Sequence record: OR296290.1
Length of the DNA: 64,000 nt
Direction: 5' to 3' (one strand)
From: Escherichia phage SDYTW1-F1-2-2_3
The position numbers and the translations under genes were made by a program. The notes under the pieces are model-generated. The model did no database searches. It was not told the DNA's origin and worked only from the letters and a program-made list of their open reading frames with translations. This document shows, one piece after another, positions 1,959 through 64,000 of the stretch. The number at the start of each line of letters is the position of its first letter. Positions within the stretch are counted from its first letter, which is position 1.

Positions 1959-2522
1959 TTAGTAAGACACATCGCCACTTGAGTGGGACATGTTGCTCTT
2001 GACGAAGTAGCAATACTTGCCAAGACCTTCATTAATTTCTTGAAGCATACTCTGATCAACTGGATAAGTGGCTAAATCACCATCAAACTCATCCATCTTC
2101 TCTATAATACACATCAAGGTCATGCACATATCAGAGAGCATACCATCCATGTCTAGGTCAGCATTACCCTCTGAGAACCAAGCATGGGAGAGATAATTGG
2201 CTGCTGTAGCATCCACTTTAACACAGTGGTAACGCATACGTTCAGCAATACGATCTCCTACTTGCCGTGCGTAATCTTCCAGCTCATCAAACATACCATG
2301 AACACCCTGAAATCCTGCACCAGAGACGTTCCAGTGGTAGTTTTTAGCTTTAATATGCAAGAGTTCCATGTTAGCTTGTAAGCAGCTCAGGATGTGTTCT
2401 AGGCTGTTTCCACTAATCATACCCTGCATCGTTTCAAGGCGAGAGATTGAAAGCTCAGACCGGTCTAACATATTATAGTCGGCACGACCGATTTCAGGTA
2501 AATCAAAGACATTCTTATGCAT
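1959..2522 (-). CDS. Dps/ferritin-like protein
   Basis: NYHWNVSGAGFQGVHGMFDELEDYARQVGDRIAERM matches Dps signature region; start moved to ATG 2522 (GGAGA SD). Confidence 0.6.
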   Translation of the reverse strand: MHKNVFDLPEIGRADYNMLDRSELSISRLETMQGMISGNSLEHILSCLQANMELLHIKAKNYHWNVSGAGFQGVHGMFDELEDYARQVGDRIAERMRYHCVKVDATAANYLSHAWFSEGNADLDMDGMLSDMCMTLMCIIEKMDEFDGDLATYPVDQSMLQEINEGLGKYCYFVKSNMSHSSGDVSY

Positions 2523-2844
2523 TTGGGTTATCTCCATCAAGTTCAACTGAATTAGCAACGTTACGTTCGATGTTTGCCATTACCTGCTGGGTAATTACGA
2601 TGCAGTTCTGTGGGTCTACTGACTTAGAACGTCCCATTTCAGGGTCATACACCTTAACTCGCTTAGCAGTTGAACCTGTGACCTGAAGAACCTTCAACAG
2701 ATATCCCTGATTACCGATAGACCAAGCAACAACATCACGATTCTTGATAAAGCGACCAAGCATATCACGATGATAAAACTGTTGCATCACCTTGGATTTT
2801 GTAATCTCTTCAGTGGGCGGGGCCACTTTACTCAAATCTAACAT
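2515..2844 (-). CDS. hypothetical protein
   Basis: 109 aa; AATGTATATA motif about 38 nt upstream of ATG. Confidence 0.5.
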   Translation of the reverse strand: MLDLSKVAPPTEEITKSKVMQQFYHRDMLGRFIKNRDVVAWSIGNQGYLLKVLQVTGSTAKRVKVYDPEMGRSKSVDPQNCIVITQQVMANIERNVANSVELDGDNPNA

Positions 2845-2916
2845 AACTCTCTCCTGTAAAATACAAATTCTTATTGTACTCTATATACATTTGAGAGTTA
2901 CCATATCTACTACCAA

Positions 2917-8625: not shown

Positions 8626-8811
8626 TTACTCTGTAATAAAGATTTTAATCACACCGCAGATTACTTCATCATTAAAAGAAGCAACAACTTCTTTATCCTG
8701 ACAGAACTCTACTTTACCATTATAAGAGTTGAAGTAGTCAGCGTCAATATCCATTGCTCGCATTTCGCCAGCTGCATTGGTGTCTTTAAACAGAACTTTA
8801 TACTTATTCAC
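8626..8811 (-). CDS. hypothetical protein (61 aa)
   Basis: Track ORF, leftward, abuts next gene. Confidence 0.4.
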   Translation of the reverse strand: MNKYKVLFKDTNAAGEMRAMDIDADYFNSYNGKVEFCQDKEVVASFNDEVICGVIKIFITE

Positions 8812-9056
8812 AGATATGTTACTCCCTTGTCTTGTTGTGCTTCAGAGATGATACGTTCTACGCATTCCATAGAGTATTTATCACCACGTTTTAGGAAAGT
8901 TACAATTGCAGAGAATTGATTACCAATCATTCGCTGATTAGTAATACCCCACTCCTCACACAATTTACGCAACTCTTTACGAGAGCCTACAATAAGAGGC
9001 TCTTTTTGTTCCATCATTCCATTTTGTACTAGATCTTCCAATGAAAACATATCCAT
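8808..9056 (-). CDS. hypothetical protein (82 aa)
   Basis: Track ORF with 4-nt overlap to downstream gene. Confidence 0.45.
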   Translation of the reverse strand: MDMFSLEDLVQNGMMEQKEPLIVGSRKELRKLCEEWGITNQRMIGNQFSAIVTFLKRGDKYSMECVERIISEAQQDKGVTYL

Positions 9057-32734: not shown

Positions 32735-32757
32735 GCCTCCCTTGGGAGGCTTTTTGT
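32735..32757 (+). terminator. intrinsic terminator
   Basis: GCCTCCCttGGGAGGC then TTTTTGT. Confidence 0.65.
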
Positions 32758-32785
32758 GTTGTTGATAATGTAGAAGGAGTATAAA

Positions 32786-33259
32786 ATGTTTGGAGAAAAC
32801 GGAGAACTCACACCTGCACAGGTAGCTGAGATTACAGGAAGATTACCCGGAGTAACGGAAGAACTTGAAGGCCGTGGTATGAACCCAAGCAATGGGAAGT
32901 TTCAAAAGGGAAATAAATTCGGACGACCCAGAGGTAGTAGAGGTAAACTGACACAATTAATGTTGGACCGTGTTGCTGCAAGTCATTTGTCTCCTGATGA
33001 AGTGTTAATTCAAATTTACGAAGATCCTAATATTCCACCTGATCTTAGATTCAAGGCTGCATCAAAAGTTGCAGATCTGGTATATCCTAAGGCGGCCTCT
33101 GTTGAAGTTAAGATTGAGGAAGAGAATGTAATTAACGAAGAATCATTGAATGCACAAATCAAGGACTTCTTGACTGGAGCACTTGGTATCGATGTTATGC
33201 CTCCAGAAGAAGACAACTCTGAGGACGCTGAAAAGGGGGAGGAAGCGGACGAGAGTTAA
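32786..33259 (+). CDS. putative terminase small subunit
   Basis: Immediately upstream of TerL; basic GNKFGRPRGSRG motif; acidic C-terminus. Confidence 0.45.
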   Translation: MFGENGELTPAQVAEITGRLPGVTEELEGRGMNPSNGKFQKGNKFGRPRGSRGKLTQLMLDRVAASHLSPDEVLIQIYEDPNIPPDLRFKAASKVADLVYPKAASVEVKIEEENVINEESLNAQIKDFLTGALGIDVMPPEEDNSEDAEKGEEADES

Positions 33260-35022: not shown

Positions 35023-37266
35023 ATGGCTAAGCAAAAATATAGTGAAGAGGTGTTGGACGAGTTACGTGTTGACCTTCAACGTCGTTTTAATTACGCTCAA
35101 GGCTACGTAGACACAGCTGTTAAGGGCTATGCTCGTGAAGCTTGGGAATATTTCTATGGTAACTTACCTGCACCAGTAACTGCTGGCAGCTCTAGTTGGG
35201 TAGATCGTACTGTTTGGGAATCTGTTAATGGTACACTGCAAGATATTATTAACGTATTCTGTTCTGGTGATGAAGCAGTTACTTTCGTAGCTGATAACCA
35301 ACAGGATTCTGATGCTGCTGATGTAGCAACTAAGTTAGTTAACCAAATTCTTCTGCGTGATAATCCGGGATATAACATTATCTCTTCTGCTGCACAAGAA
35401 TGTCTGGTTACTCGTAACTCTTTTATCAAATATTATTGGGATGAGCACACTTCTACTCAAACTGAAGAAGCTGAAGGTGTACCACCGGAAGCATTGGCTG
35501 CATATGTTCAGGGATTAGAAGCTGGTGGACTTAAGAATCTGGAAATCTTCACTGAAGAAAATGAAGATGGTACAGTAGATGTTAAAGTTACTTACGAACA
35601 AACTGTTAAACGTGTGAAAGTTGAATATGTTCCTTCAGAGCAAATCTTTGTTGATGAACATGCTACCTCTTTTGCAGATGCACAATACTTTTGTCATCGT
35701 GTACGTCGCTCTAAAGAAGATCTGGTTGCTATGGGCTTCCCTAAAGATGAGATTGAAGCATTCAACGACTGGACAGACACGATGGACACCACTCAATCTA
35801 CAGTTGCTTGGTCTCGTACTGACTGGCGTCAGGACATTGATGCTGACATTGGTACAGATACTGAAGATATCGCTACTATGGTTTGGGTTTATGAGCACTA
35901 TATTCGTACTGGTGTTCTAGATAAGAATAAAGAGTCTAAACTCTATCAGGTTATTCAAGCTGGTGAGCATATCCTTCACACTGAAGAAGTAACTCACATT
36001 CCATTTGTAACCTTCTGTCCGTATCCGATTCCGGGTTCCTTCTATGGTCAATCAGTCTATGACATTACGAAAGATATTCAGGATTTACGTACCGCGCTAG
36101 TTCGTGGTTATATTGATAACGTCAACAATGCTAACTATGGTCGATACAAAGCTCTTGTTGGTGCATACGATCGTCGCTCTCTGCTTGATAACCGTCCCGG
36201 TGGAGTGGTTGAAATGGAACGTCAGGACGCTATTGACCTGTTCCCATACCATAACCTACCTCAAGGTATTGACGGCCTCCTAGGTATGTCTGAGGAGCTT
36301 AAAGAGACACGTACCGGTGTAACTAAACTTGGTATGGGTATCAACCCTGATGTGTTTAAGAATGATAACGCTTATGCAACCGTAGGCTTGATGATGAATG
36401 CTGCACAGAACCGTCTCCGTATGGTATGTCGTAACATTGCTCACAACGGTATGGTTGAATTGATGCGTGGTATTTACAGCCTTATCAGAGAAAACGGTGA
36501 AGTTCCTATTGAGGTACAAACCCCTCGTGGTATGGTTCAGGTTAATCCGAAACAATTACCAGCTCGTCATAATCTTCAAGTTGTTGTAGCTATCTCTCCT
36601 AATGAGAAAGCAGAACGTGCACAGAAACTGATTAGCTTGAAACAGCTGATTGCAGCAGATGCACAATTAGCACCTCTCTTTGGTTTGGAGCAAGACCGCT
36701 ACATGACTGCACAGATCTTTGAGTTGATGGGTATTAAGGACACTCATAAATACTTACTGCCTCTGGAACAGTATCAGCCTCCTGAGCCGTCTCCGATGGA
36801 AATCCTCCAGCTCGAGATGACTAAAGCACAGGTTGAGAACGTACAGGCTTCTTCTCAGAAGATGATTGCTGATGCATTCGACCAGCGTGAACGTACTACA
36901 TTCGAACAGCAGAAAGCTGCGGATGAATTAAGTCTGCGTCAGGAAGAGTTGCAGTTCAAGCAAGAAAATGCAGCAGATGCTATGACTCTGGAAAACCGTA
37001 AAGAAGATAACAATGCAACTCTGGAACAAGCTAAGCACAAGTTAGCTCTTATGCAACAGCAGGTCCGTCAGTATGAGTCTGTACTGAAAGAATTGCAGAT
37101 GGTTATGGAACATCAGGTTGACCAAGAGAAGATTGTTCAGCAAACTCGTGTTCAGGATAAAACTTTGGAACTCCAGAAGAAAGAAGCAAATGTAACTAAG
37201 AAAGAGCAACAAGCTTCTCTCAAAGATTCACGGATTCCAGGCAAACGTCTTGGAAGTAAAAAGTAA
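35023..37266 (+). CDS. portal protein (putative)
   Basis: 747 aa, directly after TerL and before scaffold/capsid; C-terminal coiled-coil. Confidence 0.65.
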   Translation: MAKQKYSEEVLDELRVDLQRRFNYAQGYVDTAVKGYAREAWEYFYGNLPAPVTAGSSSWVDRTVWESVNGTLQDIINVFCSGDEAVTFVADNQQDSDAADVATKLVNQILLRDNPGYNIISSAAQECLVTRNSFIKYYWDEHTSTQTEEAEGVPPEALAAYVQGLEAGGLKNLEIFTEENEDGTVDVKVTYEQTVKRVKVEYVPSEQIFVDEHATSFADAQYFCHRVRRSKEDLVAMGFPKDEIEAFNDWTDTMDTTQSTVAWSRTDWRQDIDADIGTDTEDIATMVWVYEHYIRTGVLDKNKESKLYQVIQAGEHILHTEEVTHIPFVTFCPYPIPGSFYGQSVYDITKDIQDLRTALVRGYIDNVNNANYGRYKALVGAYDRRSLLDNRPGGVVEMERQDAIDLFPYHNLPQGIDGLLGMSEELKETRTGVTKLGMGINPDVFKNDNAYATVGLMMNAAQNRLRMVCRNIAHNGMVELMRGIYSLIRENGEVPIEVQTPRGMVQVNPKQLPARHNLQVVVAISPNEKAERAQKLISLKQLIAADAQLAPLFGLEQDRYMTAQIFELMGIKDTHKYLLPLEQYQPPEPSPMEILQLEMTKAQVENVQASSQKMIADAFDQRERTTFEQQKAADELSLRQEELQFKQENAADAMTLENRKEDNNATLEQAKHKLALMQQQVRQYESVLKELQMVMEHQVDQEKIVQQTRVQDKTLELQKKEANVTKKEQQASLKDSRIPGKRLGSKK

Positions 37267-40227: not shown

Positions 40228-40234
40228 AATTAGA

Positions 40235-40259
40235 CCCTGCCTTCGGGCGGGGTTTTTTT
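40235..40259 (+). terminator. intrinsic terminator after capsid/Ig ORF
   Basis: CCCTGCCttcgGGCGGGG then TTTTTTT. Confidence 0.7.
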
Positions 40260-40329
40260 CGTTTTAAGACCTATACAAGCTAGTGTGTAATGTATATTCT
40301 TTGTCTACATATAACAAGGAGGACAACCT

Positions 40330-41082
40330 ATGGCGATGCCTGAAGTGCAAAACCCGACTAACACGTATGGCTGGCTTAAGAAAGCTGTTGCCTTGTGGGC
40401 CGATCGAGACGATGATGAATTTGTTAATCAAATTCCAAACTTTATTAACTTTGCAGAGAAAGAGATTTATCGTAACTTACGTATCCCTCCTCTGGAAAAA
40501 GAAGTGTATTTAGATATTAAAGATGGAGTAGCTTATATTCCTCCTGATTACTTAGAAGCTCAATGGATGATGAGAGCCAAAGACGGAACAATCTTCCAAG
40601 TAACATCTCCTGAGGAGATTAGCTATCGTAGACAGCATGGAACAATTAACCCATCTCACTGGAACAACCAACCTGTTAACTTTGCTCGTTTCGGTAGTCG
40701 TTTCATTTTCTACCCTAGAATCGAAGCAGACACTCCTGTTTACCCTGATGATGGAAGTCCTTTGATTCCAGCAGAAAACTCAGTAATTCTTAGCTATTAT
40801 GCAGATCCACCGGAATTTCATGAAGATGAAGATACTAGTGCAATCCTCACTATCGCACCAGAGCTTCTTCTGTATTTTACTCTACGTCATGCTTGCTTGT
40901 TTGTTCAAGATGATAACGGAGTTCAGAAATGGTCAGCATTAGGAAAAGCTATCCTTGATGAAATGGTAGAGCAGAATAAGAAGCAAGAGTACTCAGGTTC
41001 ACCTATCGCAATTCCGAATAACATGACTCGACTTCAGAGCAGCTTGCCTGATATTTATGGTATTCGTACTTCTCGTGTATAA
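40330..41082 (+). CDS. virion structural protein (putative)
   Basis: 250 aa, AAGGAGG SD, preceded by TAATGTATA motif and terminator. Confidence 0.5.
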   Translation: MAMPEVQNPTNTYGWLKKAVALWADRDDDEFVNQIPNFINFAEKEIYRNLRIPPLEKEVYLDIKDGVAYIPPDYLEAQWMMRAKDGTIFQVTSPEEISYRRQHGTINPSHWNNQPVNFARFGSRFIFYPRIEADTPVYPDDGSPLIPAENSVILSYYADPPEFHEDEDTSAILTIAPELLLYFTLRHACLFVQDDNGVQKWSALGKAILDEMVEQNKKQEYSGSPIAIPNNMTRLQSSLPDIYGIRTSRV

Positions 41083-41091
41083 GGAGATAAT

Positions 41092-44000
41092 ATGATCGTT
41101 TATAATAACCAAGCACCTGATGCAGTGAATAACGTTGGGCAGTTTGGTGCTACAGAAGGCTCTATCGGAGCTTACAAGCAAGCAGCAGAATATGCAGCTG
41201 ATTCTAAGTATTGGGCATTACTGGCTGAGTCTAAGTTTGGCACAATCGATGATCTGATTGCTGAAGTAGAACGTCTATATCAACAGGGTGTTCTGATGCA
41301 GCAAGACATTGAGGCTTTGAAGCAGGATTTTAGAGACCAAGATGCTCATTTAATGCAACTTATCGCTCAGACTAACGCAGCTGTTTCTGATGCACAGAAC
41401 GCTCTGGCTCTTATGGACCAGAAGCTGATTGAAGTTCAGGAACGACTGGATATTCTGTTAGGTATGTCTGTTGACGTCACTACACTTCCTCCGGGAAATG
41501 AAGCTTCTGGGCATTTTGACCCTAACACTGGTGTTATCTCTTTGGGTATCCCTCAAGGTGTTCCGGGTAAAGATGGTACAGTAACAGATTTGAATAACGC
41601 ACCAACCGGTGTTCCTGTTCTTGGTGATGTAGGTTTCTATGTTGATAAAGATGACAACACTGTTCACAAAACGTCTTTAGAGAATATTGCAAACCTTATC
41701 CCATCTGTTCGTTCTATCTCTGTAAACGGCGGTCCTGCTGAGAGTGGTGAAGTTGCTCTAACTCTTGACAAAAGTACTGTTGGGTTAAGTAATGTAGAGA
41801 ACGTGGCTTCTTATAGTAAAGAGGTTGTTGATAACAAAGTTGATGGTTTTATTAAAACATACAGCTCTAAAGCTGAAGCGGATGCAGATGCTGTTAATCG
41901 TGAGGCTGGAGAAACTGTTTTAGTGTGGGAAAACACTCAGTATGTTTTCTACAAAGTGGCTGCTGATAAGATTCTAGATTTAAGTAAAACAGAACCTCGG
42001 GTTATTACTGTCAACTCTCGTATTCCTGACTCTAGCGGTAACATTGATATTACAATCCCTACAGGGAACCCATCCTTGTATCTAGGTGAATTATTGATGT
42101 TCCCTTATGACCCATCTCGCCCTATTTCTTATCCTGGGATTTTACCTGCTGACGGTCGTTTGGTGTCCAAGGATTTGGCTAGCGATTTAGGTGCTTCTTT
42201 AGTTAGTGGTCAGCTTCCGGTTGTGTCTGAGACAGAATGGCAAGCAGGTGCTAAGCAGTATTATTCTTGGGGTAAACTGGCTGATGGGCTGACTGATGCA
42301 GACTCTACCAACTACATCAACATCCGTCTTCCTGATTGGACTGGTGGTGAAGCTATTAGATCTCCTAACCTAACTGGCGATGCTTCTTATGACGGTAAGC
42401 CATTAGATCAGAAACCTTACATCGTTACTGTTAACGGAATTGCTCCTAACGATATCACAGGAAACGTCAACATAACAGCTGCAAATATAGGCGCTTTGGC
42501 TAAGTCTGGTGGTATCATGGACGGAAACTTAGTCCTTAACAAAGCTGTATCTTTACGCAGAATAAAGGATAATGACACTCAAGTTAACATGGTATCGAGA
42601 AGTGACTCTGATGCTTCTGTACTTGGTGACCACTTAGCTAAGACTGTAATAGCTTCTTCCGAGACACCAATCTTCTCTAAACCGGAAGGGGATTATAAGT
42701 TTTATACAGAGGATAACAAACCTACGAACGTTGATGTTGGTGCTGCTGGTATTGATGTTAATGGTGTAAACTCTGACATAAAAACTTTCACTCAAAAGGT
42801 TACGTTCCAGCAACCTGTTACTGTGGCAGATGCTGTTGGAGACTATGATGCTGTTACCTTACGTCAACTAAGAAACCAAGGTGGTGGAGGTGGCGGTTCT
42901 ACGATGAATGGTATCTCCAACTTCAATATTGGTGATTTCCGACTAGTAGATAGTCGAGCTTTTATCCAAGCAAATGATGTTGTGTCTGATGGTCAACTTT
43001 TGAACAGGGCCGAGTATCCTGAGCTTTGGGCGTATGCTCAGATGCTCACCCCTATAGAGGATTCTGAGTGGATTTCAACCCCTTCCAAGAGATCTCAATA
43101 TTCACTAGGAGATGGCTCTACTACATTCCGTGTCCCTGATAGGAATGGTGTTCAGAGTGGCTCTGTTAAGGCTTTATATGGAAGAGGTGACGGTGGAGGT
43201 TCTTACGGAGGTATTTATGATAGTGGGATTCCTGACATAACTGGTCAGTTCAGAGCTTATGGATACAATGCAGGTGAACCTACAGGTGCATTTGGTTCCT
43301 ATAATAGTGGTAGCGCTGAGTTTGAATTAAAATCTACATCTGCTAATTTTACTAGGTACAACACATTCACCATAAGTGCCGGAAGGGTTAACTCTGTTTA
43401 TGGAAGAGCAGACGAGGTCAGGCCTAGATCTTTCGTCGGTGTATGGGTGATTCGTGCTAAAGGGGCTTTCATCGCTGCCAATACAACATGGTCAGTAATT
43501 AATAGTGACACCTCTCGTCCTTCTGACGGAACCACTGTGACTGGTGGTAATGTAATATCTGAATATAAAGTAGGGGCAGAATCTGAAGGTTCAGCCGAGT
43601 TCCGAATGGTTGGAACGATTGGAAGCTCTTATTCTGCTAGAATTGGTGTTTACAACAAAACATCAAGTAAAGGAACTACTTTTGATTTTACTGAGGCCGG
43701 TAATATAGAGACTCCCAAAGGTCGTGTTTTGGTGAAAGGGGATTACGGTGTTGGTGCTCAGGGAAGTGTTGTATTACCTGAAACTAACTATAACCAGCTC
43801 ATAACAGATTCAGATGGTGCCTCATCGTGGGCAGCTGCTAATGGAGGGGGTATACAAACTTCCTATGCCGTAAATAGAATCTGTCAATTTTGGGTAAGTC
43901 TGAGTGGTTCGGCTTATATCAGATCTAATACACTGAACAACAACCCAAAAGAACTCAAATCCAATCTTCCGTGGACAACTCTCCAGAATGCTGGAACCTC

Positions 44001-44292
44001 TGACGCAAATGTCAAGGATATTGGAGATGATTTAGATTTAAATGTCGCTCTAAGTAATATTAAATCTCTTGAATTTAAAAACTTTACTTACAAGAACGAT
44101 GAGAAGAAATCACCACGTAGAGGGGTAATTGCGCAACAAGCAGAACAGGTGGACCCTCAGTATGTCCATAGTGCAGAAAAAAGTGGAGTCATGACTCTTG
44201 ACACTAACCCGCTTTTATTAGATGCCCTTGCTGCTATCAAGCTTTTGTCTGCTAAAGTAGAAGAGTTGGAAAAGCAGTTAGCTGCTAAATGA
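41092..44292 (+). CDS. tail fibre/spike protein with collar domain and C-terminal intramolecular chaperone (S74-like)
   Basis: 1066 aa; YPELWAYAQ...GDGSTTFRVPDRNG collar block; C-terminal DIGDDLDLNVALSNIKSLEFKNFTYKNDE...VMTLDTNPLL chaperone-like end. Confidence 0.7.
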   Translation: MIVYNNQAPDAVNNVGQFGATEGSIGAYKQAAEYAADSKYWALLAESKFGTIDDLIAEVERLYQQGVLMQQDIEALKQDFRDQDAHLMQLIAQTNAAVSDAQNALALMDQKLIEVQERLDILLGMSVDVTTLPPGNEASGHFDPNTGVISLGIPQGVPGKDGTVTDLNNAPTGVPVLGDVGFYVDKDDNTVHKTSLENIANLIPSVRSISVNGGPAESGEVALTLDKSTVGLSNVENVASYSKEVVDNKVDGFIKTYSSKAEADADAVNREAGETVLVWENTQYVFYKVAADKILDLSKTEPRVITVNSRIPDSSGNIDITIPTGNPSLYLGELLMFPYDPSRPISYPGILPADGRLVSKDLASDLGASLVSGQLPVVSETEWQAGAKQYYSWGKLADGLTDADSTNYINIRLPDWTGGEAIRSPNLTGDASYDGKPLDQKPYIVTVNGIAPNDITGNVNITAANIGALAKSGGIMDGNLVLNKAVSLRRIKDNDTQVNMVSRSDSDASVLGDHLAKTVIASSETPIFSKPEGDYKFYTEDNKPTNVDVGAAGIDVNGVNSDIKTFTQKVTFQQPVTVADAVGDYDAVTLRQLRNQGGGGGGSTMNGISNFNIGDFRLVDSRAFIQANDVVSDGQLLNRAEYPELWAYAQMLTPIEDSEWISTPSKRSQYSLGDGSTTFRVPDRNGVQSGSVKALYGRGDGGGSYGGIYDSGIPDITGQFRAYGYNAGEPTGAFGSYNSGSAEFELKSTSANFTRYNTFTISAGRVNSVYGRADEVRPRSFVGVWVIRAKGAFIAANTTWSVINSDTSRPSDGTTVTGGNVISEYKVGAESEGSAEFRMVGTIGSSYSARIGVYNKTSSKGTTFDFTEAGNIETPKGRVLVKGDYGVGAQGSVVLPETNYNQLITDSDGASSWAAANGGGIQTSYAVNRICQFWVSLSGSAYIRSNTLNNNPKELKSNLPWTTLQNAGTSDANVKDIGDDLDLNVALSNIKSLEFKNFTYKNDEKKSPRRGVIAQQAEQVDPQYVHSAEKSGVMTLDTNPLLLDALAAIKLLSAKVEELEKQLAAK

Positions 44293-44300
44293 TTAACAAC

Positions 44301-44320
44301 GCTCCCTTCGGGGAGCTTTT
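44301..44320 (+). terminator. hairpin/weak terminator after first tail fibre gene
   Basis: GCTCCCttcgGGGAGC then TTTT; SD of next gene follows. Confidence 0.45.
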
Positions 44321-44331
44321 AGGAGGATTTA

Positions 44332-46485
44332 ATGTCTAGAGAATTAATGCCCAAATCCGGTATAATGATGCCTCATGTAGTAATCAACAGAGATGCTGCG
44401 GTAGTTGGTGTCTCTACTGTAGATGGAGTTGCTGGTGCAGTTGATCTTACTGGTAAGTACCTACAGAAAACAGATGCGGCAGATACCTATCAAACAAAAA
44501 CTGAAGGTGCTTCTAAGACTTATGTTTTAGATTCTATTCAACCTATCATGGAAGGTGCTTTGTTTAAAGCTGACCCTTTCGTAGATAACAATATCCCTTT
44601 CCGTTCTGCTGGTGCTAATGGTGTAGAATCCATAGATATGATTAAGGTCACTCCAGAGAACTCTATTAAACTTGGAAGTTACGAGTCTTCTGTTCAAGGA
44701 GTAGAGATTCACTCTGCTGGTCGTGTTGTGGTTGTTGATAAGAACGACTCTGGTGTGGAAACCAAGTATCCTGTTTACTCCAAACGCTTCCGTCCTGAGA
44801 TTGAAGATTTACCATTTGCAGCCATAGGCTCTTATGTTAAAGACTCCAAAGGCCGCACGATCGGTGTGAACCGTACAGGTATTAACTCTGATATTAAACA
44901 GTTTACTCAGAAAGTCACCTTCCAGCAGCCTGTAACAATCGCAGATGGTGTGGGTGATTATGATGCTGTAACAATGAGGCAGTTACGTAACAGTGGTGGT
45001 GGTTCTGGTGGTCCTACAATGAGCGGTATCTCTAACTTCGGTATTGGTGATTTCCACTTACGAGATAGTCGCGCTTTTATTCCAGCTTTTGAGGTTACAT
45101 CAGATGGGCAGCTTCTTAATCGTGCTGACTATCCTGATTTATGGGCTTATGCTCAATTATTGACTCCTATTCCTGACTCTCAATGGCTAGGAGATGTTAG
45201 GGAACGTGGTAAATATTCAGTGGGTGATGGTTCTACTACTTTCCGAGTTCCTGACCGAAATGGTGTCCAAGCTGACTCTATTAAAGCATTATTTGCTAGA
45301 GGTGATGCTGGTGTTTCATCTATAAATGGAACAATACAACAAGCTCACGTACCTAATATTTCTGCCAAAATGGACCTCCATGCAGGTGGTTCAGCCAACA
45401 TAATAAGTGGGGCCATTGGAGCTTTTGTAGGCGGTGGTGGCTCAACAACGACTTATAGAACCCCTGGTACGTTAACAGTAAACTCCGGTGCAAGCTCTTT
45501 TGGCACAATGACTTTAGATGCTAGTAAATCTAGCTCTGTGTATGGTTCTATTCCTTCCAACACGGATGAAGTCTTACCTCGTAACTTTACAGGTGTCTGG
45601 ACTATTCGTGCCCATGGTGGGTTTGTAGCTGCTAATACCTCTTGGGCTGTTATTAATAGTGATGCGTCTGCCACACCCGGCGCTTATGTATCTGGCGGGC
45701 AGGTTATATCTAAATATCAGGTTAACGGTGTAGACCGCGCCATTGCCCGCATGAGCGCTGATTGGCGGGTTGGGGATGCCTACCAATCAACAATCCATTT
45801 TTATAATAACTCAACCAATAGCGGCGGAACTGCGATCACTGATTCTCACTACTATTTGAGTGGACCATCTGGACAGATTCTAACTGATTCAAAAACAGGG
45901 ATAGGTGATGCGGGGGGCATGTTTGCGACACCGAATGCAAACGACTTTACTACTAACGGTATTTATGCAGGTGCTGGGGCTAATGGGGTTAACTGGGGGG
46001 ACGCGTATTCGGCACTGCTGCACATGTCTCGCTATAATGCCTCCTCGCAGCGCGCTCAGCTTCAGATCAGTCCCACAGGTTTGTTGAAGGTTCGTGGTGC
46101 CTCCCCTACAACTTGGTCCGACTGGTTCACAATGCAGGCGCAGGGAACTTCTGGACGTGACTTTAAGCGCGACATAACCCCAGCAGACCCGAAAGAAGCA
46201 TTTGACCGGATTGCTTCACAAGATCTTGTCACGTTTATCTATAAGGATGACGAACAGGAGCGCGTTCGTTTCGGTATTATCGCGGAGGATGCGGAGAAGA
46301 TTGCGCCGCAATACATCAAGCACGGCGAGGAGACGGTAGAGGTTGATGGTGAGGTGATCACTCGTGATCATCCGAGAGTCGACGTTAACCCTATTGTCAT
46401 GGATTTAATTGGCGCTGTTCACTATCTCCGTGATGAAGTTGATCAGCTAAAAGCAGAACTGGCTGAGTTGAAAGATAGTAAATAA
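44332..46485 (+). CDS. second tail fibre protein (paralogous collar block + S74-like chaperone)
   Basis: 717 aa; shares about 180 aa block with 41092-44292; C-terminal FIYKDDEQERVRFGIIAEDAEKIAPQYI... Confidence 0.7.
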   Translation: MSRELMPKSGIMMPHVVINRDAAVVGVSTVDGVAGAVDLTGKYLQKTDAADTYQTKTEGASKTYVLDSIQPIMEGALFKADPFVDNNIPFRSAGANGVESIDMIKVTPENSIKLGSYESSVQGVEIHSAGRVVVVDKNDSGVETKYPVYSKRFRPEIEDLPFAAIGSYVKDSKGRTIGVNRTGINSDIKQFTQKVTFQQPVTIADGVGDYDAVTMRQLRNSGGGSGGPTMSGISNFGIGDFHLRDSRAFIPAFEVTSDGQLLNRADYPDLWAYAQLLTPIPDSQWLGDVRERGKYSVGDGSTTFRVPDRNGVQADSIKALFARGDAGVSSINGTIQQAHVPNISAKMDLHAGGSANIISGAIGAFVGGGGSTTTYRTPGTLTVNSGASSFGTMTLDASKSSSVYGSIPSNTDEVLPRNFTGVWTIRAHGGFVAANTSWAVINSDASATPGAYVSGGQVISKYQVNGVDRAIARMSADWRVGDAYQSTIHFYNNSTNSGGTAITDSHYYLSGPSGQILTDSKTGIGDAGGMFATPNANDFTTNGIYAGAGANGVNWGDAYSALLHMSRYNASSQRAQLQISPTGLLKVRGASPTTWSDWFTMQAQGTSGRDFKRDITPADPKEAFDRIASQDLVTFIYKDDEQERVRFGIIAEDAEKIAPQYIKHGEETVEVDGEVITRDHPRVDVNPIVMDLIGAVHYLRDEVDQLKAELAELKDSK

Positions 46486-46578
46486 TCTATTGCCCCTTCG
46501 GGGGCTTTAGTAGTAACTAGAGCTAGTAGGTAATGAAACTAATATATCCCAAGAGGTTAATACATAGGAGATACGTAA

Positions 46579-54047: not shown

Positions 54048-55100
54048 ATGTCTTTATTTGGAAAATCAGCTTCTAGCAAAACCACAGTGGCTCCTTCCTC
54101 TCAGGTTGATGCCCTGCTGAAGCAGATTGTTGCTAATGCTCAGAATATGCAGAACAACGATCAGGGATTTATTTCCCAACAGCTGGCTGGGTTTAATGGC
54201 AACCAACAAGGTGCTCTGAATAACTTAGCAGCTTCTACAACTCAAAAGCAATTGGCTGATATGTACACACCTCGTACACAGCAAGGTTTGGACCAACTGA
54301 ACTCTCTTGCCAAACAGTATCAGAATATTGTTAATGGTGGCGGTTTAACTGCTGATGGTGTTAACAACTTTAGTAAAGGATTAAATAGCTCAGCTCTTGC
54401 TCAGGCTACTAGCAAAGCAGCTTCTAATGTTTCTCTTGGCAATGGCTCTGATTCAGGCTCTCTCCGTAGGGCTGCGGCTCAAGGGGCGGCTTTGAATGGT
54501 GCTAATACAAATCTATCTCGTACCATCAATGGTAAGAACATGGGAATCAGTGCTCTTCAACAAGACCAGAACTTCCAGAGAGGTTTGCTTGGTGCTCAGT
54601 CTGGTTTAGCTGGACAGAATCTCAATCTTGGTGCTCAAGGTGTTCAGTCAACTCAGCAAGCTATCCAGAATCAACTTATGGCTGGTAATCTACAACAGCA
54701 ACAAGCTCAAGCTCAAGCAGATATCAATTGGCAAAACGCTATTGGTTCTCAGCAGTATGGATGGAATCAGCTTAACAACCAGCTTAATGTATTAAACAGT
54801 GTAAGCCCAATGGCTGGATACACAATTAAGAATGCTGCTCCGGGGGTTAATACTGGACAACAGCTCCTAGGTGCTGGTATCACTGGTTTAGGTATTGCAG
54901 GTCGTATGGGAGCTTTCTCTCCTAACCAACAGACTCAGAATGCTTGGAGTTCCTATAACAACTCAGGTGGGCAGTCTGGTATGGCTGGTCCTATGATTGG
55001 AGGTTCTAATCTTTCTCAACAGAAAGGTCAGTCTAACTGGTTATCCACAACGGGTAATAATATCTTAGGCGGTGTCTTAGGGGCATTCGGAGCAAACTAA
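54048..55100 (+). CDS. Gln/Asn/Gly-rich low-complexity protein (paralog 1)
   Basis: 350 aa; N-terminus MSLFGKSASSKTT...GFNGNQQGALNNLA parallels the next gene. Confidence 0.5.
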   Translation: MSLFGKSASSKTTVAPSSQVDALLKQIVANAQNMQNNDQGFISQQLAGFNGNQQGALNNLAASTTQKQLADMYTPRTQQGLDQLNSLAKQYQNIVNGGGLTADGVNNFSKGLNSSALAQATSKAASNVSLGNGSDSGSLRRAAAQGAALNGANTNLSRTINGKNMGISALQQDQNFQRGLLGAQSGLAGQNLNLGAQGVQSTQQAIQNQLMAGNLQQQQAQAQADINWQNAIGSQQYGWNQLNNQLNVLNSVSPMAGYTIKNAAPGVNTGQQLLGAGITGLGIAGRMGAFSPNQQTQNAWSSYNNSGGQSGMAGPMIGGSNLSQQKGQSNWLSTTGNNILGGVLGAFGAN

Positions 55101-56094: not shown

Positions 56095-57774
56095 ATGCAA
56101 CAGACAACTTACGCTCAGGTCAGAAGTCGTGACCCGAGAAATACTTTCTATGGTGTTAATCCGGGAGCGGCTTCGGCCTCTCCTTATATGGCTAGACCTA
56201 CTCAGACAGCGGATGTTTCTATGTACCAGCGTCCTGCTGTACCTTCATCTCTCGCAGGTCTTGTCTCTCAGGCAGAAGAAGATCAGAATGCTATGGTGAA
56301 TCCGGGATTCCAGCAACGTCTTATGGAACAACAGAATCAAGGAACCCCAACAAGTCTTCAGGGTATTGACATTGGAGCACCAGCCCCTGTAGCAGCTAAT
56401 CCTAATTTATCTACTGATCAAGGTTTGCAGGATGCTGGACTTATGCCTAGTGACCCTCTTCCGGTGACACCTCCTGCCAAGCCACTAGAAACTGGTCCTA
56501 TGGAGTTTACTCCTTCTCAGGTTGAACAAGCACAAGGTGTTGTTAATACTCTTGCTCAAGGACAAGACACCGGTGACGGAATGGCTGCTGCTACTCGTAC
56601 TAAAGATCAAGAGCGTGTTAACAATGATATCTTGCAAGTTGCAAAAGCTAAAGATCCTTCAGAAGCTTGGAAGAAGTTACAGAAAGAACCTTTCTATCAG
56701 AACTCTAGTTTCTATACAGGTTTAATGGGTGTAGGTCTTTCTATCATGTCAGGTAAATCTCCTATCGAAGCATTCCAGATTGGTCAGGGGATGGCTAATC
56801 AAGATGAGACTAAAAAGCAACTGGAAGCTAACCGTGATGCTCTGATTGAACAAGGTTTCTCTCAAGACTCAATTGCAGCTGCTATAGCTCAGGGTGATCC
56901 TTCTCTTCTGAAGATGAAAGCTAAAGACCCTCTTCAACAGGAAGCTCTGTATGCTGCTCGTGAAGAACGTCAGAATGCTGAGTGGGATAGACGTCAAGCT
57001 ATCAATGAAGAATCTGCTGAGAGAAACCGTAAGGCTACTTTGGAAAATCAGTTAGCTCTGGCGGAAGCGCGTGGTGAGATTACTCGCGACAACCTTTTGT
57101 TCAAGAAGGATCACAATGTTCGTAGAACATCTCCCAAGTGGGAAAAAACAGAGGAGCTTGGTGGTATTACTCCTAACTTGCGAGATAAATTACAGCAATC
57201 TTATCGTCCTGTTATTAATGTCCTAGCTTCTCGAAACAAGTGGATGGCTCCTACAGAGGCTGCTATTTCTAAACTAGGAACTGGTGCAAATTCTCAAGAG
57301 AACTCAGCTCAGCAACGTGCTGCTATTGAGAACTTGACTAAACTTATTCAGGGTGGTTTAGCTTCTATTAACGGAGAAGTTATGAATGAGCTTACAGGTG
57401 ATCCAGATTGGGTTAACAACAAGTTGAATAAGATTCAGATGATGGCAGGTCAAGGTCCGACCGAAGCAAATATCAAGTGGCTTAAAGCACTCGGTACAGA
57501 GATTCAAGAGATTGATAAAGAGGCAACTAAGTACCAAGTAGCCCCTCTAGTGGAATCTTTGATTCTTGATAGTGGTTTGGCTCCTGAAAATGCTATCAGA
57601 GCTGCTAACTCTATTTTTGCTCCTGGCTCTGTTCGACTCACTACTGAGGAGTTTAAAGAATGGTCTCGTGGACATAGTAAAGTTCACGATAAAACATTCC
57701 CTGATGACAAGCCTTCTAAATTGAAGGGTGGTGCTTTATCTGGTTCTTCAGATACTAGCTGGTTCACTCAATAA
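56095..57774 (+). CDS. internal virion/ejection protein (putative)
   Basis: 559 aa in late block after SLT and Q-rich genes. Confidence 0.45.
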   Translation: MQQTTYAQVRSRDPRNTFYGVNPGAASASPYMARPTQTADVSMYQRPAVPSSLAGLVSQAEEDQNAMVNPGFQQRLMEQQNQGTPTSLQGIDIGAPAPVAANPNLSTDQGLQDAGLMPSDPLPVTPPAKPLETGPMEFTPSQVEQAQGVVNTLAQGQDTGDGMAAATRTKDQERVNNDILQVAKAKDPSEAWKKLQKEPFYQNSSFYTGLMGVGLSIMSGKSPIEAFQIGQGMANQDETKKQLEANRDALIEQGFSQDSIAAAIAQGDPSLLKMKAKDPLQQEALYAAREERQNAEWDRRQAINEESAERNRKATLENQLALAEARGEITRDNLLFKKDHNVRRTSPKWEKTEELGGITPNLRDKLQQSYRPVINVLASRNKWMAPTEAAISKLGTGANSQENSAQQRAAIENLTKLIQGGLASINGEVMNELTGDPDWVNNKLNKIQMMAGQGPTEANIKWLKALGTEIQEIDKEATKYQVAPLVESLILDSGLAPENAIRAANSIFAPGSVRLTTEEFKEWSRGHSKVHDKTFPDDKPSKLKGGALSGSSDTSWFTQ

Positions 57775-57794
57775 GACCTAAGTCCTGCCTTCTA

Positions 57795-57805
57795 TAATGT
57801 ATATA
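57795..57805 (+). promoter_or_regulatory. candidate phage promoter element TAATGTATATA
   Basis: TAATGTATA at 57795-57803 and 40288-40296, AATGTATATA on minus strand at 2883-2892; each 33-38 nt upstream of a start codon. Confidence 0.35.
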
Positions 57806-57841
57806 GGGGGTAGGACATTTTTATTTATAAAAGGAGACGTT

Positions 57842-60800
57842 ATGGCTAACATTAAACCGTGGGAAGAAGCTTCCAAAGCTCCTGCGTATCTGAATGCCTC
57901 TCCGGAGCGTCAAGCTCAAATGAGAGAACAATATAAGGCAGCAGGTGGCTCTATTCCTGAGGAACGACCAGTGGCACAACCACAACAAGAAGAACGTGGT
58001 GTTATTGGTGAGTTTGCTCAAGGTGTGTCAAATGCTCTTCAATCTGGTGGTGCAAACATCGCAGCTAGTACTGCTAGAGGTGTTGGTGGTTTGGTTGAGC
58101 TTGGTGAAAACCTAGCTGGAGCACAAACTAGTTATGGTAAGCGTATCCAAGAGAATGCTCAAAACCTCTTGAAAGAACGTATGGATAAGATTGAGGATGG
58201 GATTGGTAAAACTGCCGGTCAGTACGCTGGAGTGGCTGCCGATATCGGTTTGACAGTTGCTAGCCCATTAACTGCCGCTGCTGTCATCGCAGGTCGTGAG
58301 ACAGGTCGTGCATATGCAGACCAAACCCCTGAAGAGGGAGAAGATAAGTCTGTTCTGGATGCAGCTCTAGTCGGTGGTGCTAACTATGCAGCTATGAGAA
58401 TCCTTCCGGGTGCTGTTGGTACAGCTGAGTCCACACTTGGACGTATTGGTCAGAACGTTGCTTCTAACGCAGTGGCTGGTGCTAAAGGTGGTGCTCTTAT
58501 TGGTGCTGCTGAAGCTCAGAACAAATATGGTGATGACAATGATCTAGCTAAGACACTAGAAGGTGTTATCACAGAAGGGGCTATGGGTGCTGCATTTGGT
58601 GGTGCAGTTGGTGGGGTTCATGGTTTGATTAGTCGTCCGGATTCTGCTGTCTTTAGGAACACTCCAGAGTATGCGAAGACTGATATTGCTGCTGATGATG
58701 AGTTGATTCGTAGTGCTAAGAATATTGATGAACTGAAAGAAGCCTACTCTAAAGCTGAAACTGCTAATGCTGCTTCTGCCCTTAATCTTCTGGATGAGAA
58801 TGGATTCCGTATCACAGATGCTGTTGCTGTAGATTCTCCTGCTGCTCAGCGTATTCTTAATACAGACCAAGCTCGTGCTGAGAAAGCTGCTTCTGCTCAG
58901 AAAGACCACTCTAACATCCCGGGCCTTAATCCTTTGGCTGCCCCTGCTAAGACTCGTGGTAAAGCTTTCGCTGATAATGAGCACAACCAGAAACAGGCTG
59001 TTGCTATGAAAGATGCAATGGCTGATTACACCAAGGATAACACTAAAACTCTTACAGATGTTCTAGATAATCTAGATCGTGAATTAACCTCTCTCCGAGC
59101 TTCTGGTGACTTTACTGGCAGCCCGATTGATATTAAGAATCGCACACAAGCTGACCGTGATTTCATTGATGCTTACAAGACTTTCTATAATGAAGCAAAC
59201 CGATTCAAAGCTCGTGATGGTGAAGACTTTAACAACTTTGTAGAGAAAGCTACTGAGCTACAGAAGATGGCTGATAACGTTTCTCCAGAGATGAAGAAAG
59301 CTATTGGTGGGTTGAAAAAACTGAAGGGTATGCCTGAAGGTTTTAATCCTATCCAAGACGCTTACACTCTGAACAACACAGCTAAGTTTATGAGCAACCA
59401 AGATCGTGGTTGGACTTCCCTAACTGACGACGGCTTCCGTGAGGCTTCTTCTCCTAGTCTGGTTATGAACACCCTTGGTGCTGCTAAGTATGCTCTGAAT
59501 CGCTTCTCTTCTCAGCGTGCTCGCTCTCAACGTGTTAAACAACAAGAATCTAACAGTGAAGCTATCCGCTCTCTGGCTCGTGGTGATTTGGAAGTTGCTC
59601 GTGCTAAATCTACTGCTGATGAAGCTCGTGCTAAAATGGAAGAAGAACCAGTTGTTGATGACATTAATTTTAAGACGCAAAATGACGTAGAAACCGAACC
59701 GGTTCGGGAGCCTTCTTCTAGTACTGTGACGGAAGAAAATCTTCCTTCTTCTGCTCTTCAAGATTCCCCTCTTACAGCTCGTGATTTAGTTGCGCAAAGA
59801 CGTGCTATCCGTCAGGCTGAACAGCGTCGTGCTGAAGAAGAGGCGGCGGCAGCTCGAGAAGCTCCGGTTGAACAGGCTCCACAGGCTGAACCTCTCCCTG
59901 CTCGTAATCCTTTAGAGGAGCGTCGTGCAATAGAGCAGCAACGTGCTCAAGAAGAGGGCCAAAAGGCTTCATCAGAGGATGCATCTTCTGTTACTAAAGA
60001 ATCCCTCTCTCACTATGCTGAAGATGGGATACTTTCTCAAGACTTAAATGGCAACATTGCTCTTCGCCTAAACCAGTTCACCCCAGCTGAGCAACAGTTT
60101 TTGCGTAACCATAATTTGGTTGACTCAAACGATATGGTCAAAGCTAGTTCTCTAAGACAAGCTGATCCATTACCTGCTCGTGCTCCTAAAGCTCCTAAGG
60201 AAGCTGTACAGGACGTTAAACCGGCAAGTGGTGTAGAACGCTTAGCTGCTATGTCTAGTGCTGCTCGTCAGGCTACTAAAGATCGTGCAGAACGTTTTGC
60301 TCGTTCTCTGTATTCTAAGGCTGCTAAGGCTAAAGCTACTGCTGAAAACTTCTTGGCTTACAAGGGTGATCCTAAGGAATTGATGCGTCGTATTCGTCAG
60401 GAAGATAATGCTATCAACACTGAACGTCATGAAGAGATGGCTCGTAATCAGCTAGCTTCTCAGCAAGGTATTGCTACTGCTAAGAACAACACTGTACGAA
60501 CTAACTTTGCTGAATGGGTTAAGGAACGTGGTCTGCCAGAAGACATTGCTACTAAGGCATTACGTGCTGAAGAGAAAGGTTTAGGTGGGAACGTAACTAA
60601 CTTGGATAGTCTTAAACGTCGTGCTGAAAGGTTGTATCAGAAGCAGCGTGAGGATGAGTTTGATAGACTGTATCAACAAGCTCTAGAAGAGAATAAAGCT
60701 TTCGACAAGAAAGATGCTCCTAAACTGGTTGACCAGAAGAAAGAGCTTCAATCTGAGATTGATACTTTGGTTGATTCAGAACCTTTACGTCCTGCTCAGA

Positions 60801-62422
60801 AAGATGCTATGCGTAAGCTGATGAATGATTATGTAGATGGGAAGTTTAAATCTTCAGAGAAAGCTGGTAGGGAAGAGGCTTTGGAAGTTGGTCAGATGAA
60901 GGATGTTTGGGATGGGTTTATTAACACCTATAACAGAGAAGTGAATGCCTTCAACAAAGCTAACAAGAACTCTCAATATGAAGCTGCTGCTAAACACTTG
61001 CAGGCTCGTGAAGAACGTCTTGCTACTCTGAAAAATAAGGCACAGGCTCGTTCAGATGCTAAAGCTGCTGTTGAGAATGAACGTAAGACTCTAGAGGCTA
61101 TTGCAGCTCAGAAGAGTGAGATTGAGAAGATGATGGAAGGTTTACCTAAGCCTGTTCGTGAAGCTCAGGAATCTCGTACATTGAAACAGTTGGCTGCTCA
61201 CCATGATAAGAACTCTCCAGTTCCTCCAGAGAAGTTCCGTAGTTACATTGAACGTATCCATAACGCCGAGTCAGATTACCTTGACCGTCAGCGTCGTTTA
61301 ACTGATGCAGAGGAAGATGCTCGTCAGGATAAGTGGAACAAGATGTATGAGCAAGCGGAAGAGATGGACCGTAAGTTTGATATAGACAAAAGAGTTAAGC
61401 GCAGTGAAGAGCTTAAAGCTGCTCAGAAGCGTGAGAATGACCTTATGGCAGTACAACGTCAACGTGATGACATTCATCGCCGCCTGATGCATACTATGGA
61501 AGATAAGGGCATATCTAGAGAGGATGCTGAAGCATTTGCTGGTTCCTACATGGATAACCGTTATGCACTTCTTGAGAAGCCTATGACTCCTACTGAACAT
61601 CAGAATGCTCGTTCTCGTATCGAGGCTGATGTTGAGAAGTTTGCTAAGAAGTACGAATCAATGACCCCTATCGAGAAAGAGATTGTTAAGATTACTGGAG
61701 ATACTGAAGGTAAGCTTGATAACTTGGATGCGGATACTAGGAAGGCTGTTGAGGAGGCTCAGAAGGTTGACTCTGATATTAAGAAACTGCAAGAGGAAGA
61801 GTTGGAGATGGAGAAGATTCGTTCTGCTCTGCCTGACGATGAAAAATCTCAAGCAAATTCTGATATCTTGGAAAGTATTAAGCAGCAGGAAGAAGTCTTT
61901 GCTGATAAAGTAGAGAAAGCTTTCTTGAGTGGGAAGAGCTTGGATGAGTTAGCTAGTGTGGCTGAAGTTTTAGACAGGGTTCATGGTGCAGACAAGGCTG
62001 GTAACAACCGTCGCTTTGTACGTGCATTGCAGACTGCTGCTGAAAACAAGAAGAAGTATGGTGATAATCCGGTAGCTTGGTTTAGTGCTGATGATTATTC
62101 TGCTATTGCTAAACTTGGTGCTTCTTCCGCAGGTGGTAACAAATCTAGAGCACTGGAGAAGATCTTTGGTTCTACAGCTGAACAAGCTAAGAGTAAGTTG
62201 CTTGGCAGGGATGATGTAGCTAAGATGAGACGTGTGATTGAAGAGAACCCTGATGTTAAGATTCCTTCTTACAAGACAACGAATCGTACTGAGTACTTGC
62301 AGTTCTTGGAGAAGTTTAATGACGAAGGGAAGCCGAAGATTAAACGTGGCTCATTGTCAGAGAAGCTTGAACGCAGTAAGCGTCAATCGAGACTCCGTGT
62401 AAGAGTTCGACCTAAGGAGTGA
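57842..62422 (+). CDS. giant Ala/Glu/Lys-rich coiled-coil protein (1526 aa), putative internal/ejection protein
   Basis: Start moved to ATG 57842 (AAGGAGA SD); preceded by TAATGTATATA motif; ends at convergent terminator. Confidence 0.5.
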   Translation: MANIKPWEEASKAPAYLNASPERQAQMREQYKAAGGSIPEERPVAQPQQEERGVIGEFAQGVSNALQSGGANIAASTARGVGGLVELGENLAGAQTSYGKRIQENAQNLLKERMDKIEDGIGKTAGQYAGVAADIGLTVASPLTAAAVIAGRETGRAYADQTPEEGEDKSVLDAALVGGANYAAMRILPGAVGTAESTLGRIGQNVASNAVAGAKGGALIGAAEAQNKYGDDNDLAKTLEGVITEGAMGAAFGGAVGGVHGLISRPDSAVFRNTPEYAKTDIAADDELIRSAKNIDELKEAYSKAETANAASALNLLDENGFRITDAVAVDSPAAQRILNTDQARAEKAASAQKDHSNIPGLNPLAAPAKTRGKAFADNEHNQKQAVAMKDAMADYTKDNTKTLTDVLDNLDRELTSLRASGDFTGSPIDIKNRTQADRDFIDAYKTFYNEANRFKARDGEDFNNFVEKATELQKMADNVSPEMKKAIGGLKKLKGMPEGFNPIQDAYTLNNTAKFMSNQDRGWTSLTDDGFREASSPSLVMNTLGAAKYALNRFSSQRARSQRVKQQESNSEAIRSLARGDLEVARAKSTADEARAKMEEEPVVDDINFKTQNDVETEPVREPSSSTVTEENLPSSALQDSPLTARDLVAQRRAIRQAEQRRAEEEAAAAREAPVEQAPQAEPLPARNPLEERRAIEQQRAQEEGQKASSEDASSVTKESLSHYAEDGILSQDLNGNIALRLNQFTPAEQQFLRNHNLVDSNDMVKASSLRQADPLPARAPKAPKEAVQDVKPASGVERLAAMSSAARQATKDRAERFARSLYSKAAKAKATAENFLAYKGDPKELMRRIRQEDNAINTERHEEMARNQLASQQGIATAKNNTVRTNFAEWVKERGLPEDIATKALRAEEKGLGGNVTNLDSLKRRAERLYQKQREDEFDRLYQQALEENKAFDKKDAPKLVDQKKELQSEIDTLVDSEPLRPAQKDAMRKLMNDYVDGKFKSSEKAGREEALEVGQMKDVWDGFINTYNREVNAFNKANKNSQYEAAAKHLQAREERLATLKNKAQARSDAKAAVENERKTLEAIAAQKSEIEKMMEGLPKPVREAQESRTLKQLAAHHDKNSPVPPEKFRSYIERIHNAESDYLDRQRRLTDAEEDARQDKWNKMYEQAEEMDRKFDIDKRVKRSEELKAAQKRENDLMAVQRQRDDIHRRLMHTMEDKGISREDAEAFAGSYMDNRYALLEKPMTPTEHQNARSRIEADVEKFAKKYESMTPIEKEIVKITGDTEGKLDNLDADTRKAVEEAQKVDSDIKKLQEEELEMEKIRSALPDDEKSQANSDILESIKQQEEVFADKVEKAFLSGKSLDELASVAEVLDRVHGADKAGNNRRFVRALQTAAENKKKYGDNPVAWFSADDYSAIAKLGASSAGGNKSRALEKIFGSTAEQAKSKLLGRDDVAKMRRVIEENPDVKIPSYKTTNRTEYLQFLEKFNDEGKPKIKRGSLSEKLERSKRQSRLRVRVRPKE

Positions 62423-63688: not shown

Positions 63689-64000
63689 TTATTCCCAAGT
63701 TTTTTCGAGCCACGACCAATCAAATAGGTCTTCCGGAGTCTGACCAACAAAGAGCAGCTGAGCATTCTCAAGCATCTTCTCTTCATCTTCAGTATCGAAC
63801 TTCTTATAATATTCCATTCGTACTATATGATACATGGTCCACTTGTCTGTAACACCAGCCAATAACTTAGCTGCTGCTTTCTTCCCTATTCCTTGACGTC
63901 GAAGCTGAAGCTTACCGCCCCACATAACTTCTTTACGTTCTCCACATCCGGGGATATTATCTGTACCATCTCCAACCAACATCTGATAGAAGAAGTTTTG
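63689..64000 (-). CDS. 5'-3' exonuclease (FEN-type, H3TH region), 3' part; gene starts beyond window end
   Basis: Frame open to window edge; LVGDGTDNIPG...GIGKKAAAKLL resembles the H3TH motif of 5' nucleases, with an insert. Confidence 0.5.
   Translation of the reverse strand, partial: QNFFYQMLVGDGTDNIPGCGERKEVMWGGKLQLRRQGIGKKAAAKLLAGVTDKWTMYHIVRMEYYKKFDTEDEEKMLENAQLLFVGQTPEDLFDWSWLEKTWE

Follow-up and report, generated by a model that had tools for sequence, protein, structure and literature searches.

The nine-nucleotide motif TAATGTATA at positions 57795-57803 (plus strand) is, with a probability of roughly 94%, the -10 element (tAATGTAtA) of phiEco32-like middle and late promoters, a class bound by host core RNA polymerase in complex with gp36, the sigma factor of the phage. 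Three other elements of this class occur in the window, i.e. the whole 64,000-nt stretch of DNA that was analysed, and what was observed directly comprises the element sequences, the orthology of the elements to promoters mapped in phiEco32, the degree to which they are conserved among relatives and the presence of a gp79 gene. The original prediction had proposed a promoter element working with a phage-encoded factor and likened it to the sigma-dependent promoters found in phiEco32-type phages; the proposal is supported by orthology to the phiEco32 promoters P13, P26 and P68, and the comparison was correct, the window phage being of the phiEco32 type.

Genome context and promoter orthology

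Megablast assigned the window to the phiEco32-type E. coli podophages (Gordonclarkvirinae, Kuravirus), the tested segment sharing 97% identity with phage PE006 and 92-93% with phiEco32; none of the database records was identical to the window. Alignment of the whole window by BLAST with the genome of phiEco32, for which loci L001 and L002 served as the reference, gave approximately 93% DNA identity across the promoter-bearing blocks and a colinear, circularly permuted map. Window positions 1-31400, with genes on the minus strand, correspond to phiEco32 genes about 65-128, positions 31400-62450 on the plus strand to genes 1-26, and the last 1.5 kb to genes 27-31. According to the phiEco32 alignment, genes 32-64, among them gene 36 for the sigma factor, lie beyond the window limits, as do the promoters P40 and P58. 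Within the late region, the tail-fibre genes 14 and 15 (42360-46490, plus strand) are the least conserved relative to phiEco32, with 72-78% identity or no match, and this divergence is the usual exchange of host-range modules. A tRNA-Arg gene with anticodon TCT (21745-21821, minus strand) is likewise present in phiEco32.

In phiEco32, six middle and late promoters are used by E. coli RNA polymerase carrying gp36, and these gp36-dependent promoters precede genes 6, 13, 26, 40, 58 and 68 (PMC8948821, PMC4281155, PMC12276001). The published elements are TAATGTAgA for P6, TAATGTATA for P13, P26, P40 and P58, and aAATGTATA for P68 (PMC8948821 Table S3), with the same sequences printed in the SU10 paper (PMC4281155 Table S2); their positions in phiEco32 are 1677, 9101, 26014, 36640(-), 42945(-) and 46870(-). 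Four of these six promoters have counterparts at orthologous positions in the window, P40 and P58 being the two that fall outside it. The consensus tAATGTAtA is matched in the window by two copies of TAATGTATA and one each of AAATGTATA and TAATGTAGA, the same variants as published for P13, P26, P68 and P6, respectively.

Of the window sites, those at 40288, 57795 and 2892(-) correspond in the alignment to phiEco32 positions 9101, 26014 and 46870(-), and the P6 site corresponds to position 1677. The 9-mers are the same, the flanks are nearly identical and the gaps to the start codons of genes 13, 26 and 68 are the same as in phiEco32. This base-for-base alignment of elements, flanks and distances identifies the three sites as P13, P26 and P68. 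The P26 element is identical to phiEco32 26014-26022 and invariant among 12 distinct relatives.

Sequence reading and a pattern search confirmed the two plus-strand copies that had been claimed, the P26 element 38 nt before the ATG at 57842 and the P13 element at 40288-40296, 33 nt before the ATG at 40330. The minus-strand copy had been placed at 2883-2892 with a gap of 38 nt; the copy is real, and its coordinates and its spacing were each off by one, the 10-mer AATGTATATA occupying 2882-2891 and the P68 element AAATGTATA itself 2884-2892 on the minus strand, 39 nt before the ATG at 2844. The fourth copy, TAATGTAGA at 32766-32774 on the plus strand, is the P6 element and had been missed; it stands 11 nt before the ATG at 32786. 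By analogy with phiEco32, P68 would be a middle promoter serving genes 68 onward on the minus strand, and P6, P13 and P26 would be late promoters serving the packaging, head, tail and internal-protein genes.

Start codons, transcription starts and leaders

A constant spacing between motif and start codon had been put forward as a reason to suspect a promoter element, but it is only approximate among the three copies then known (33, 38 and 39 nt) and fails for P6. The spacing is 11, 33, 38 and 39 nt for P6, P13, P26 and P68, and the 11-nt gap at P6 shows that these elements keep no set distance to the start codon. The functional distance is that between the element and the transcription start, 6-8 nt, and a fixed start-codon distance is not supported. 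With the first A of AATGTA numbered -14, so that AATGTA spans -14 to -9 at P26, and with +1 extrapolated from phiEco32, the predicted start points in the window are A2877 for P68, approximately A32781 for P6, G40303 for P13 and G57810 for P26; both these positions and the middle or late class of each promoter are predictions carried over from the phiEco32 experiments.

P13 precedes the homologue of gene 13, a virion structural protein of 250 aa (40330-41082, plus strand), and the homologue of gene 68 (109 aa; 2515-2844, minus strand) lies downstream of P68. P26 serves the homologue of gene 26 (57842-62422, plus strand), whose start codon is preceded by the Shine-Dalgarno (SD) sequence AAGGAG and corresponds to the phiEco32 annotation at 26061. 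With 1526 aa, the gene 26 product exceeds the length of 1472-1473 aa that it has in phiEco32 and other relatives and is 53 aa longer than in phiEco32, a phage to which the isolate is about 93% identical; a search for the exact product of this gene gave no record, and the approximately 53 extra codons fall between two BLAST blocks, at 59958-60158 on the plus strand. An ATG at 57797, inside the TAATGTATA element, is in frame with gene 26, and a mechanical ORF call accordingly runs from 57797 to 62422 (1541 aa). ORF finders thus over-extend gene 26 by 15 codons, the SD-preceded start being the one at 57842.

At P6, the predicted start would give the mRNA of the gene 6 homologue a leader of approximately 5 nt, i.e. 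a near-leaderless transcript, because the AGGAG sequence lies upstream of the predicted start. Read-through transcripts initiated upstream of P6 would retain the SD sequence of the gene 6 homologue.

Recognition by the gp36 holoenzyme

The gp36 promoters of phiEco32 have been described as having one consensus in common, tAATGTAtA, which lies 6-8 nt upstream of the transcription start (Pavlova et al. 2012 as summarised in PMC8948821). In the open complex on P68, as resolved by cryo-EM, the N-terminal domain of gp36 recognises -14A and -13A as well as the A opposite -12T, it flips -11G, the DNA is melted from -11 to +2, and the C-terminal domain touches -37G and the T opposite -34A; mutating the bases contacted by gp36 cripples transcription (PMC12276001). 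P26 and P68 are both active in vitro with the gp36 holoenzyme and are stimulated by gp79 four-fold and three-fold, respectively, and gp79 inhibits the sigma70 and sigmaS holoenzymes (PMC12276001).

All four window sites carry A-14, A-13, T-12, G-11 and A-34; at -37, P68 and P6 have G, and P13 and P26 have A. More generally, the pattern T-38 R-37 R-36 n A-34 is present in all four window promoters and in all six phiEco32 promoters, the window blocks lying at 2911-2915(-) for P68, 32743-32747 for P6, 40265-40269 for P13 and 57772-57776 for P26. This T-R-R-n-A block fits the structural contacts at -37 and -34 and qualifies the older description of a single-element promoter. Around it, P13 and P26 share an identical sequence TAAGACCTA from -38 to -30 (40265-40273 and 57772-57780, both plus strand), and these two are the only exact copies of TAAGACCTA in the window. 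In relatives EK010 and UKE3 the block at P26 is kept, and there the gene upstream no longer takes its stop codon from it. The corresponding P68 block, TTGGTAGTAGATAT from -39 to -26 (2903-2916, minus strand), carries G-37 and A-34 and does not vary among 6 relatives, including those in which a different gene lies upstream.

The pattern TRRNA-N19-AATGTA, which was derived post hoc, occurs 5 times in the window against an expectation of 0.97. The fifth match, TGGAA...TAATGTATT at 54762-54791 (plus strand), lies inside the homologue of gene 23, which encodes a DNA ejection protein, and is co-oriented with the late genes; phiEco32 has its counterpart with TAATGTATT at 23028, and one such match is expected by chance.

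By extension from the phiEco32 experiments, the window promoters would be used by the gp36 holoenzyme. Host RNA polymerase core together with the ECF-like sigma factor gp36 would bind the -10 element, with the gp36 N-terminal domain recognising -14A, -13A, -12T and -11G, the DNA opening from -11 and the C-terminal domain contacting -37 and -34, and RNA synthesis would begin 6-8 nt past the 9-mer. A homologue of gp79 is encoded at 8808-9056 on the minus strand and is identical to chain G of PDB 9m7y at 81 of 82 residues (E = 4e-51). This homologue is predicted to be both an inhibitor of sigma70 transcription and a co-activator of gp36-dependent promoters, and in that capacity it would shut off sigma70 transcription and stimulate the gp36 promoters. 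The gene for gp36 is predicted from the phiEco32 alignment to lie approximately 2 kb past window position 64000. The window has a 133-aa protein that is found unchanged in four relatives, all of them other isolates, and each of the four carries a 214-aa gene in the gp36 position; the 214-aa protein of the one relative tested (L016) is a full-length match to gp36 of PDB 9m7y (E = 1e-144).

It is very improbable that the elements are instead ordinary host sigma70 promoters, with a TATATA-like and possibly extended TG -10 element and with TTGGTA of P68 as a -35 element. Such a reading has a precedent in the SU10 paper, where TTGGTA and the P68 element bear the labels '-35' and '-10' and where sigma70 is suggested as a possible additional reader of the middle genes (PMC4281155), and a weak sigma70-like match, TTGGGA-16-GATAAT (9/12), overlaps P6. 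However, a scan for TTGACA-(16-18)-TATAAT at a threshold of at least 9/12 gave no bipartite match at P13, P26 or P68, and the distance from TTGGTA to TATATA at P68 is 23 nt, too far for sigma70. Published work, moreover, assigns these promoters to the gp36 holoenzyme and has gp79 blocking sigma70 transcription (PMC12276001, PMC8948821).

Terminators and the P26 hairpin

The original prediction that two of the three copies follow terminators is borne out with a qualification: the copy at 40288 comes after a classical terminator hairpin at 40232-40255, and the one at 57795 is located within a terminator-like hairpin instead of after one. The former is the intrinsic terminator after gene 12 (full extent 40232-40265, plus strand); it stands directly upstream of P13, its U-tract abuts the P13 -35 block, and it is listed for SU10 too (PMC4281155). 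A terminator hairpin is also found upstream of P6 (32735-32750, plus strand), where the 3' arm holds the P6 block TGGGA at 32743-32747.

At P26, a terminator scan identified a 15-bp hairpin at 57782-57816 on the plus strand, with the loop ATGTA (-13 to -9), followed by the tail AUUUUUAUUUAU to position 57828. The P26 -10 element sits at the apex of this hairpin, which has a folding energy of -22.8 kcal/mol (z = -4.67). The structure has the form of an intrinsic terminator, a stable G+C-containing stem with the U-tract AUUUUUAUUU directly after it; the published SU10 terminator list does not include it (PMC4281155). Among ten relatives, 150 of 150 cells of the stem alignment are paired. Five pairs vary, each on one side only and via G-U, no double compensatory change was found among the 10 relatives, and shuffles gave an equal outcome. 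An RNA starting at 57809, in the predicted +1 region, is unstructured. Since the predicted start G57810 falls in the 3' arm, P26 transcripts would be without the 5' arm and would escape the hairpin.

A motif that is primarily an RNA or DNA structural element, namely the apex of a terminator hairpin, would account for the position of TAATGTATA in a stable, conserved hairpin followed by a U-tract at 57782-57816. This is nevertheless very improbable as an explanation of the motif, as the P13, P68 and P6 copies are not inside hairpins, a structural role fits only one of the four copies, and phiEco32 P26, identical in sequence, is an active gp36 promoter in vitro (PMC12276001). These observations make the hairpin an added feature of one copy and not the common function.

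Conservation in relatives and placement in the window

Relatives were taken from IMG/VR, metagenome, Logan and GenBank loci and anchored on AATGTA; the metagenome and IMG/VR scans yielded few relatives, mostly close ones. Across them the promoter blocks are constant while the flanking coding and leader sequences diverge. In P68, the stretch from -39 to +2 varies only at -24, -22 and -4, even with a different upstream gene and a diverged leader. P13 is almost invariant from -39 to +25 in 5 distinct relatives, P26 shows no change between -38 and +13 other than at -35 (in one relative) and at paired positions of the stem, and P6 keeps -38 to -24 and -15 to -9.

Further afield, in 82-90 kb phage contigs whose gene 68 product is about 75% identical, TAATGTATATA is found 38-39 nt before a thioredoxin gene (L034 494-502, L035 493-501 and L036 494-502), with TGGGA at -38 to -34 and a hairpin just before it. 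The thioredoxin gene lies directly upstream of the gene 68 homologue in these contigs, and no promoter was found directly before the gene 68 homologue itself. Upstream of the gene 13 homologue in one of these distant contigs (L014 1130-1200, from the contig of L036), TAATGAATA replaces TAATGTATA and may be a variant -10 element of that clade. Within the large non-coding early region of the window, TAATGAATA also occurs at 28444(-) and 31268(+).

In the window, total counts of the motif are at the level of chance, and its placement is above it. In the whole window, AATGTATA was found 4 times against 2.6 expected by shuffle, which is not above chance; TAATGTATA with at most one mismatch was found 16 times against 19.8 expected, and AATGTA 44 times against 42.9. 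Four of the five WAATGTAKA matches, by comparison, are located 10-45 nt upstream of an SD-preceded start codon and co-oriented with it (binomial P = 3.7e-6, given that qualifying position-and-strand slots make up 2.9% of the sequence); the fifth, at 41790, is inside the gene 14 homologue. As the 6-, 8- and 9-mer counts are at shuffle expectation, the case for the gp36 -10 element rests on placement, orthology and experiments that were published for a relative with 93% identity. Random recurrence of an AT-rich 9-mer in intergenic DNA that is itself AT-rich, although in keeping with those raw counts, has a negligible probability in view of the placement statistic, the exact orthology to mapped promoters, the invariance of the elements amid diverging flanks and the T-R-R-n-A block shared at a fixed register (5 versus 0.97 expected, for a post hoc pattern).

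Two other lines were set aside. A weight matrix of 40 positions, derived from the six phiEco32 promoters, scored the window sites at 29-32 bits, with the next best at 15.8 and shuffles reaching 20.7; since it had been trained on near-identical orthologues of the window sites, the matrix is circular and was not used as evidence. The sequence GAATGTATA at 24227-24235(-) appeared to lie 18 nt before an ATG, but the ATG in question is an artefact of calling ORFs from their first start, and the phiEco32 alignment places the sequence inside the gene 116 homologue.

A seventh, antisense site outside the window

Beyond the region covered by the window, phiEco32 (L001) has a seventh perfect TAATGTATA at 36704-36712 (plus strand), back to back with P40. 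The site carries a P68-type TTGGTAGTAGATAT block and is antisense to the middle genes. It is kept in four relatives (L015 6639-6647(-), L016 5400-5408(-), L017 5586-5594(-) and L018 5530-5538(-)), and in two of the four an insertion parts it from P40, with the site still conserved. It has no entry in the accessible published promoter lists for phiEco32. The seventh site might drive a small RNA or a primer transcript.

A tentative extension, somewhat doubtful in its entirety, is that the 35 nt at P26 serve two purposes, as the terminator of the late transcript of genes 13-25 and, at the apex, as a gp36 -10 element, that P6 and P13 are likewise fused to terminators, and that, together with the antisense seventh site, this would leave the published six-promoter map incomplete in detail. 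The identity of the motif would be unchanged if such a dual-purpose module at P26 proved true.

Relation to known systems and implications

The nearest counterpart of the window promoters is the set of phiEco32 gp36 promoters (Pavlova et al. 2012; Lavysh et al. 2022; Xu et al. 2025), with which they share the 9-mers, the downstream genes, the spacing to the start codons and the bases at -37 and -34, their flanks being almost identical as well. The late promoters of phages 7-11 and GAP52, read by the sigma factor SaPh711_gp47, differ in being bipartite, GTAAtg-(16)-aCTA. Phage 7-11 resembles the window phage in its genome layout, has promoters at equivalent positions and encodes a sigma factor that is homologous but very distant; unlike the phiEco32 system, it is without gp79 and without a middle class (PMC8948821). 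The 7-11 pattern was found 9 times in the window against 9.3 expected, and at none of the four sites. Promoters of bacterial ECF (group 4) sigma factors are likewise read by a two-domain sigma, with sigma2-like and sigma4-like parts, through -10 and -35 regions (PMC12276001). Relative to these, the -10 element of gp36 is long and dominant, the -35 part is a loose T-R-R-n-A, and gp79 is a dedicated co-activator. The -35 motif of bacterial ECF promoters is of the AAC type.

The promoter class, its sigma factor and co-activator and the atomic mechanism of recognition are already known for phiEco32, and predictions for orthologous promoters of the phiEco32 subgroup have already been tabulated, leaving little significance beyond correct annotation. 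The T-R-R-n-A block, the fusion of terminators with promoters and the possible seventh promoter are small additions that could interest specialists in this phage group. In practical terms, the genes of the window can be assigned to middle and late units with predicted transcript starts, and the annotation trap at gene 26 is flagged.
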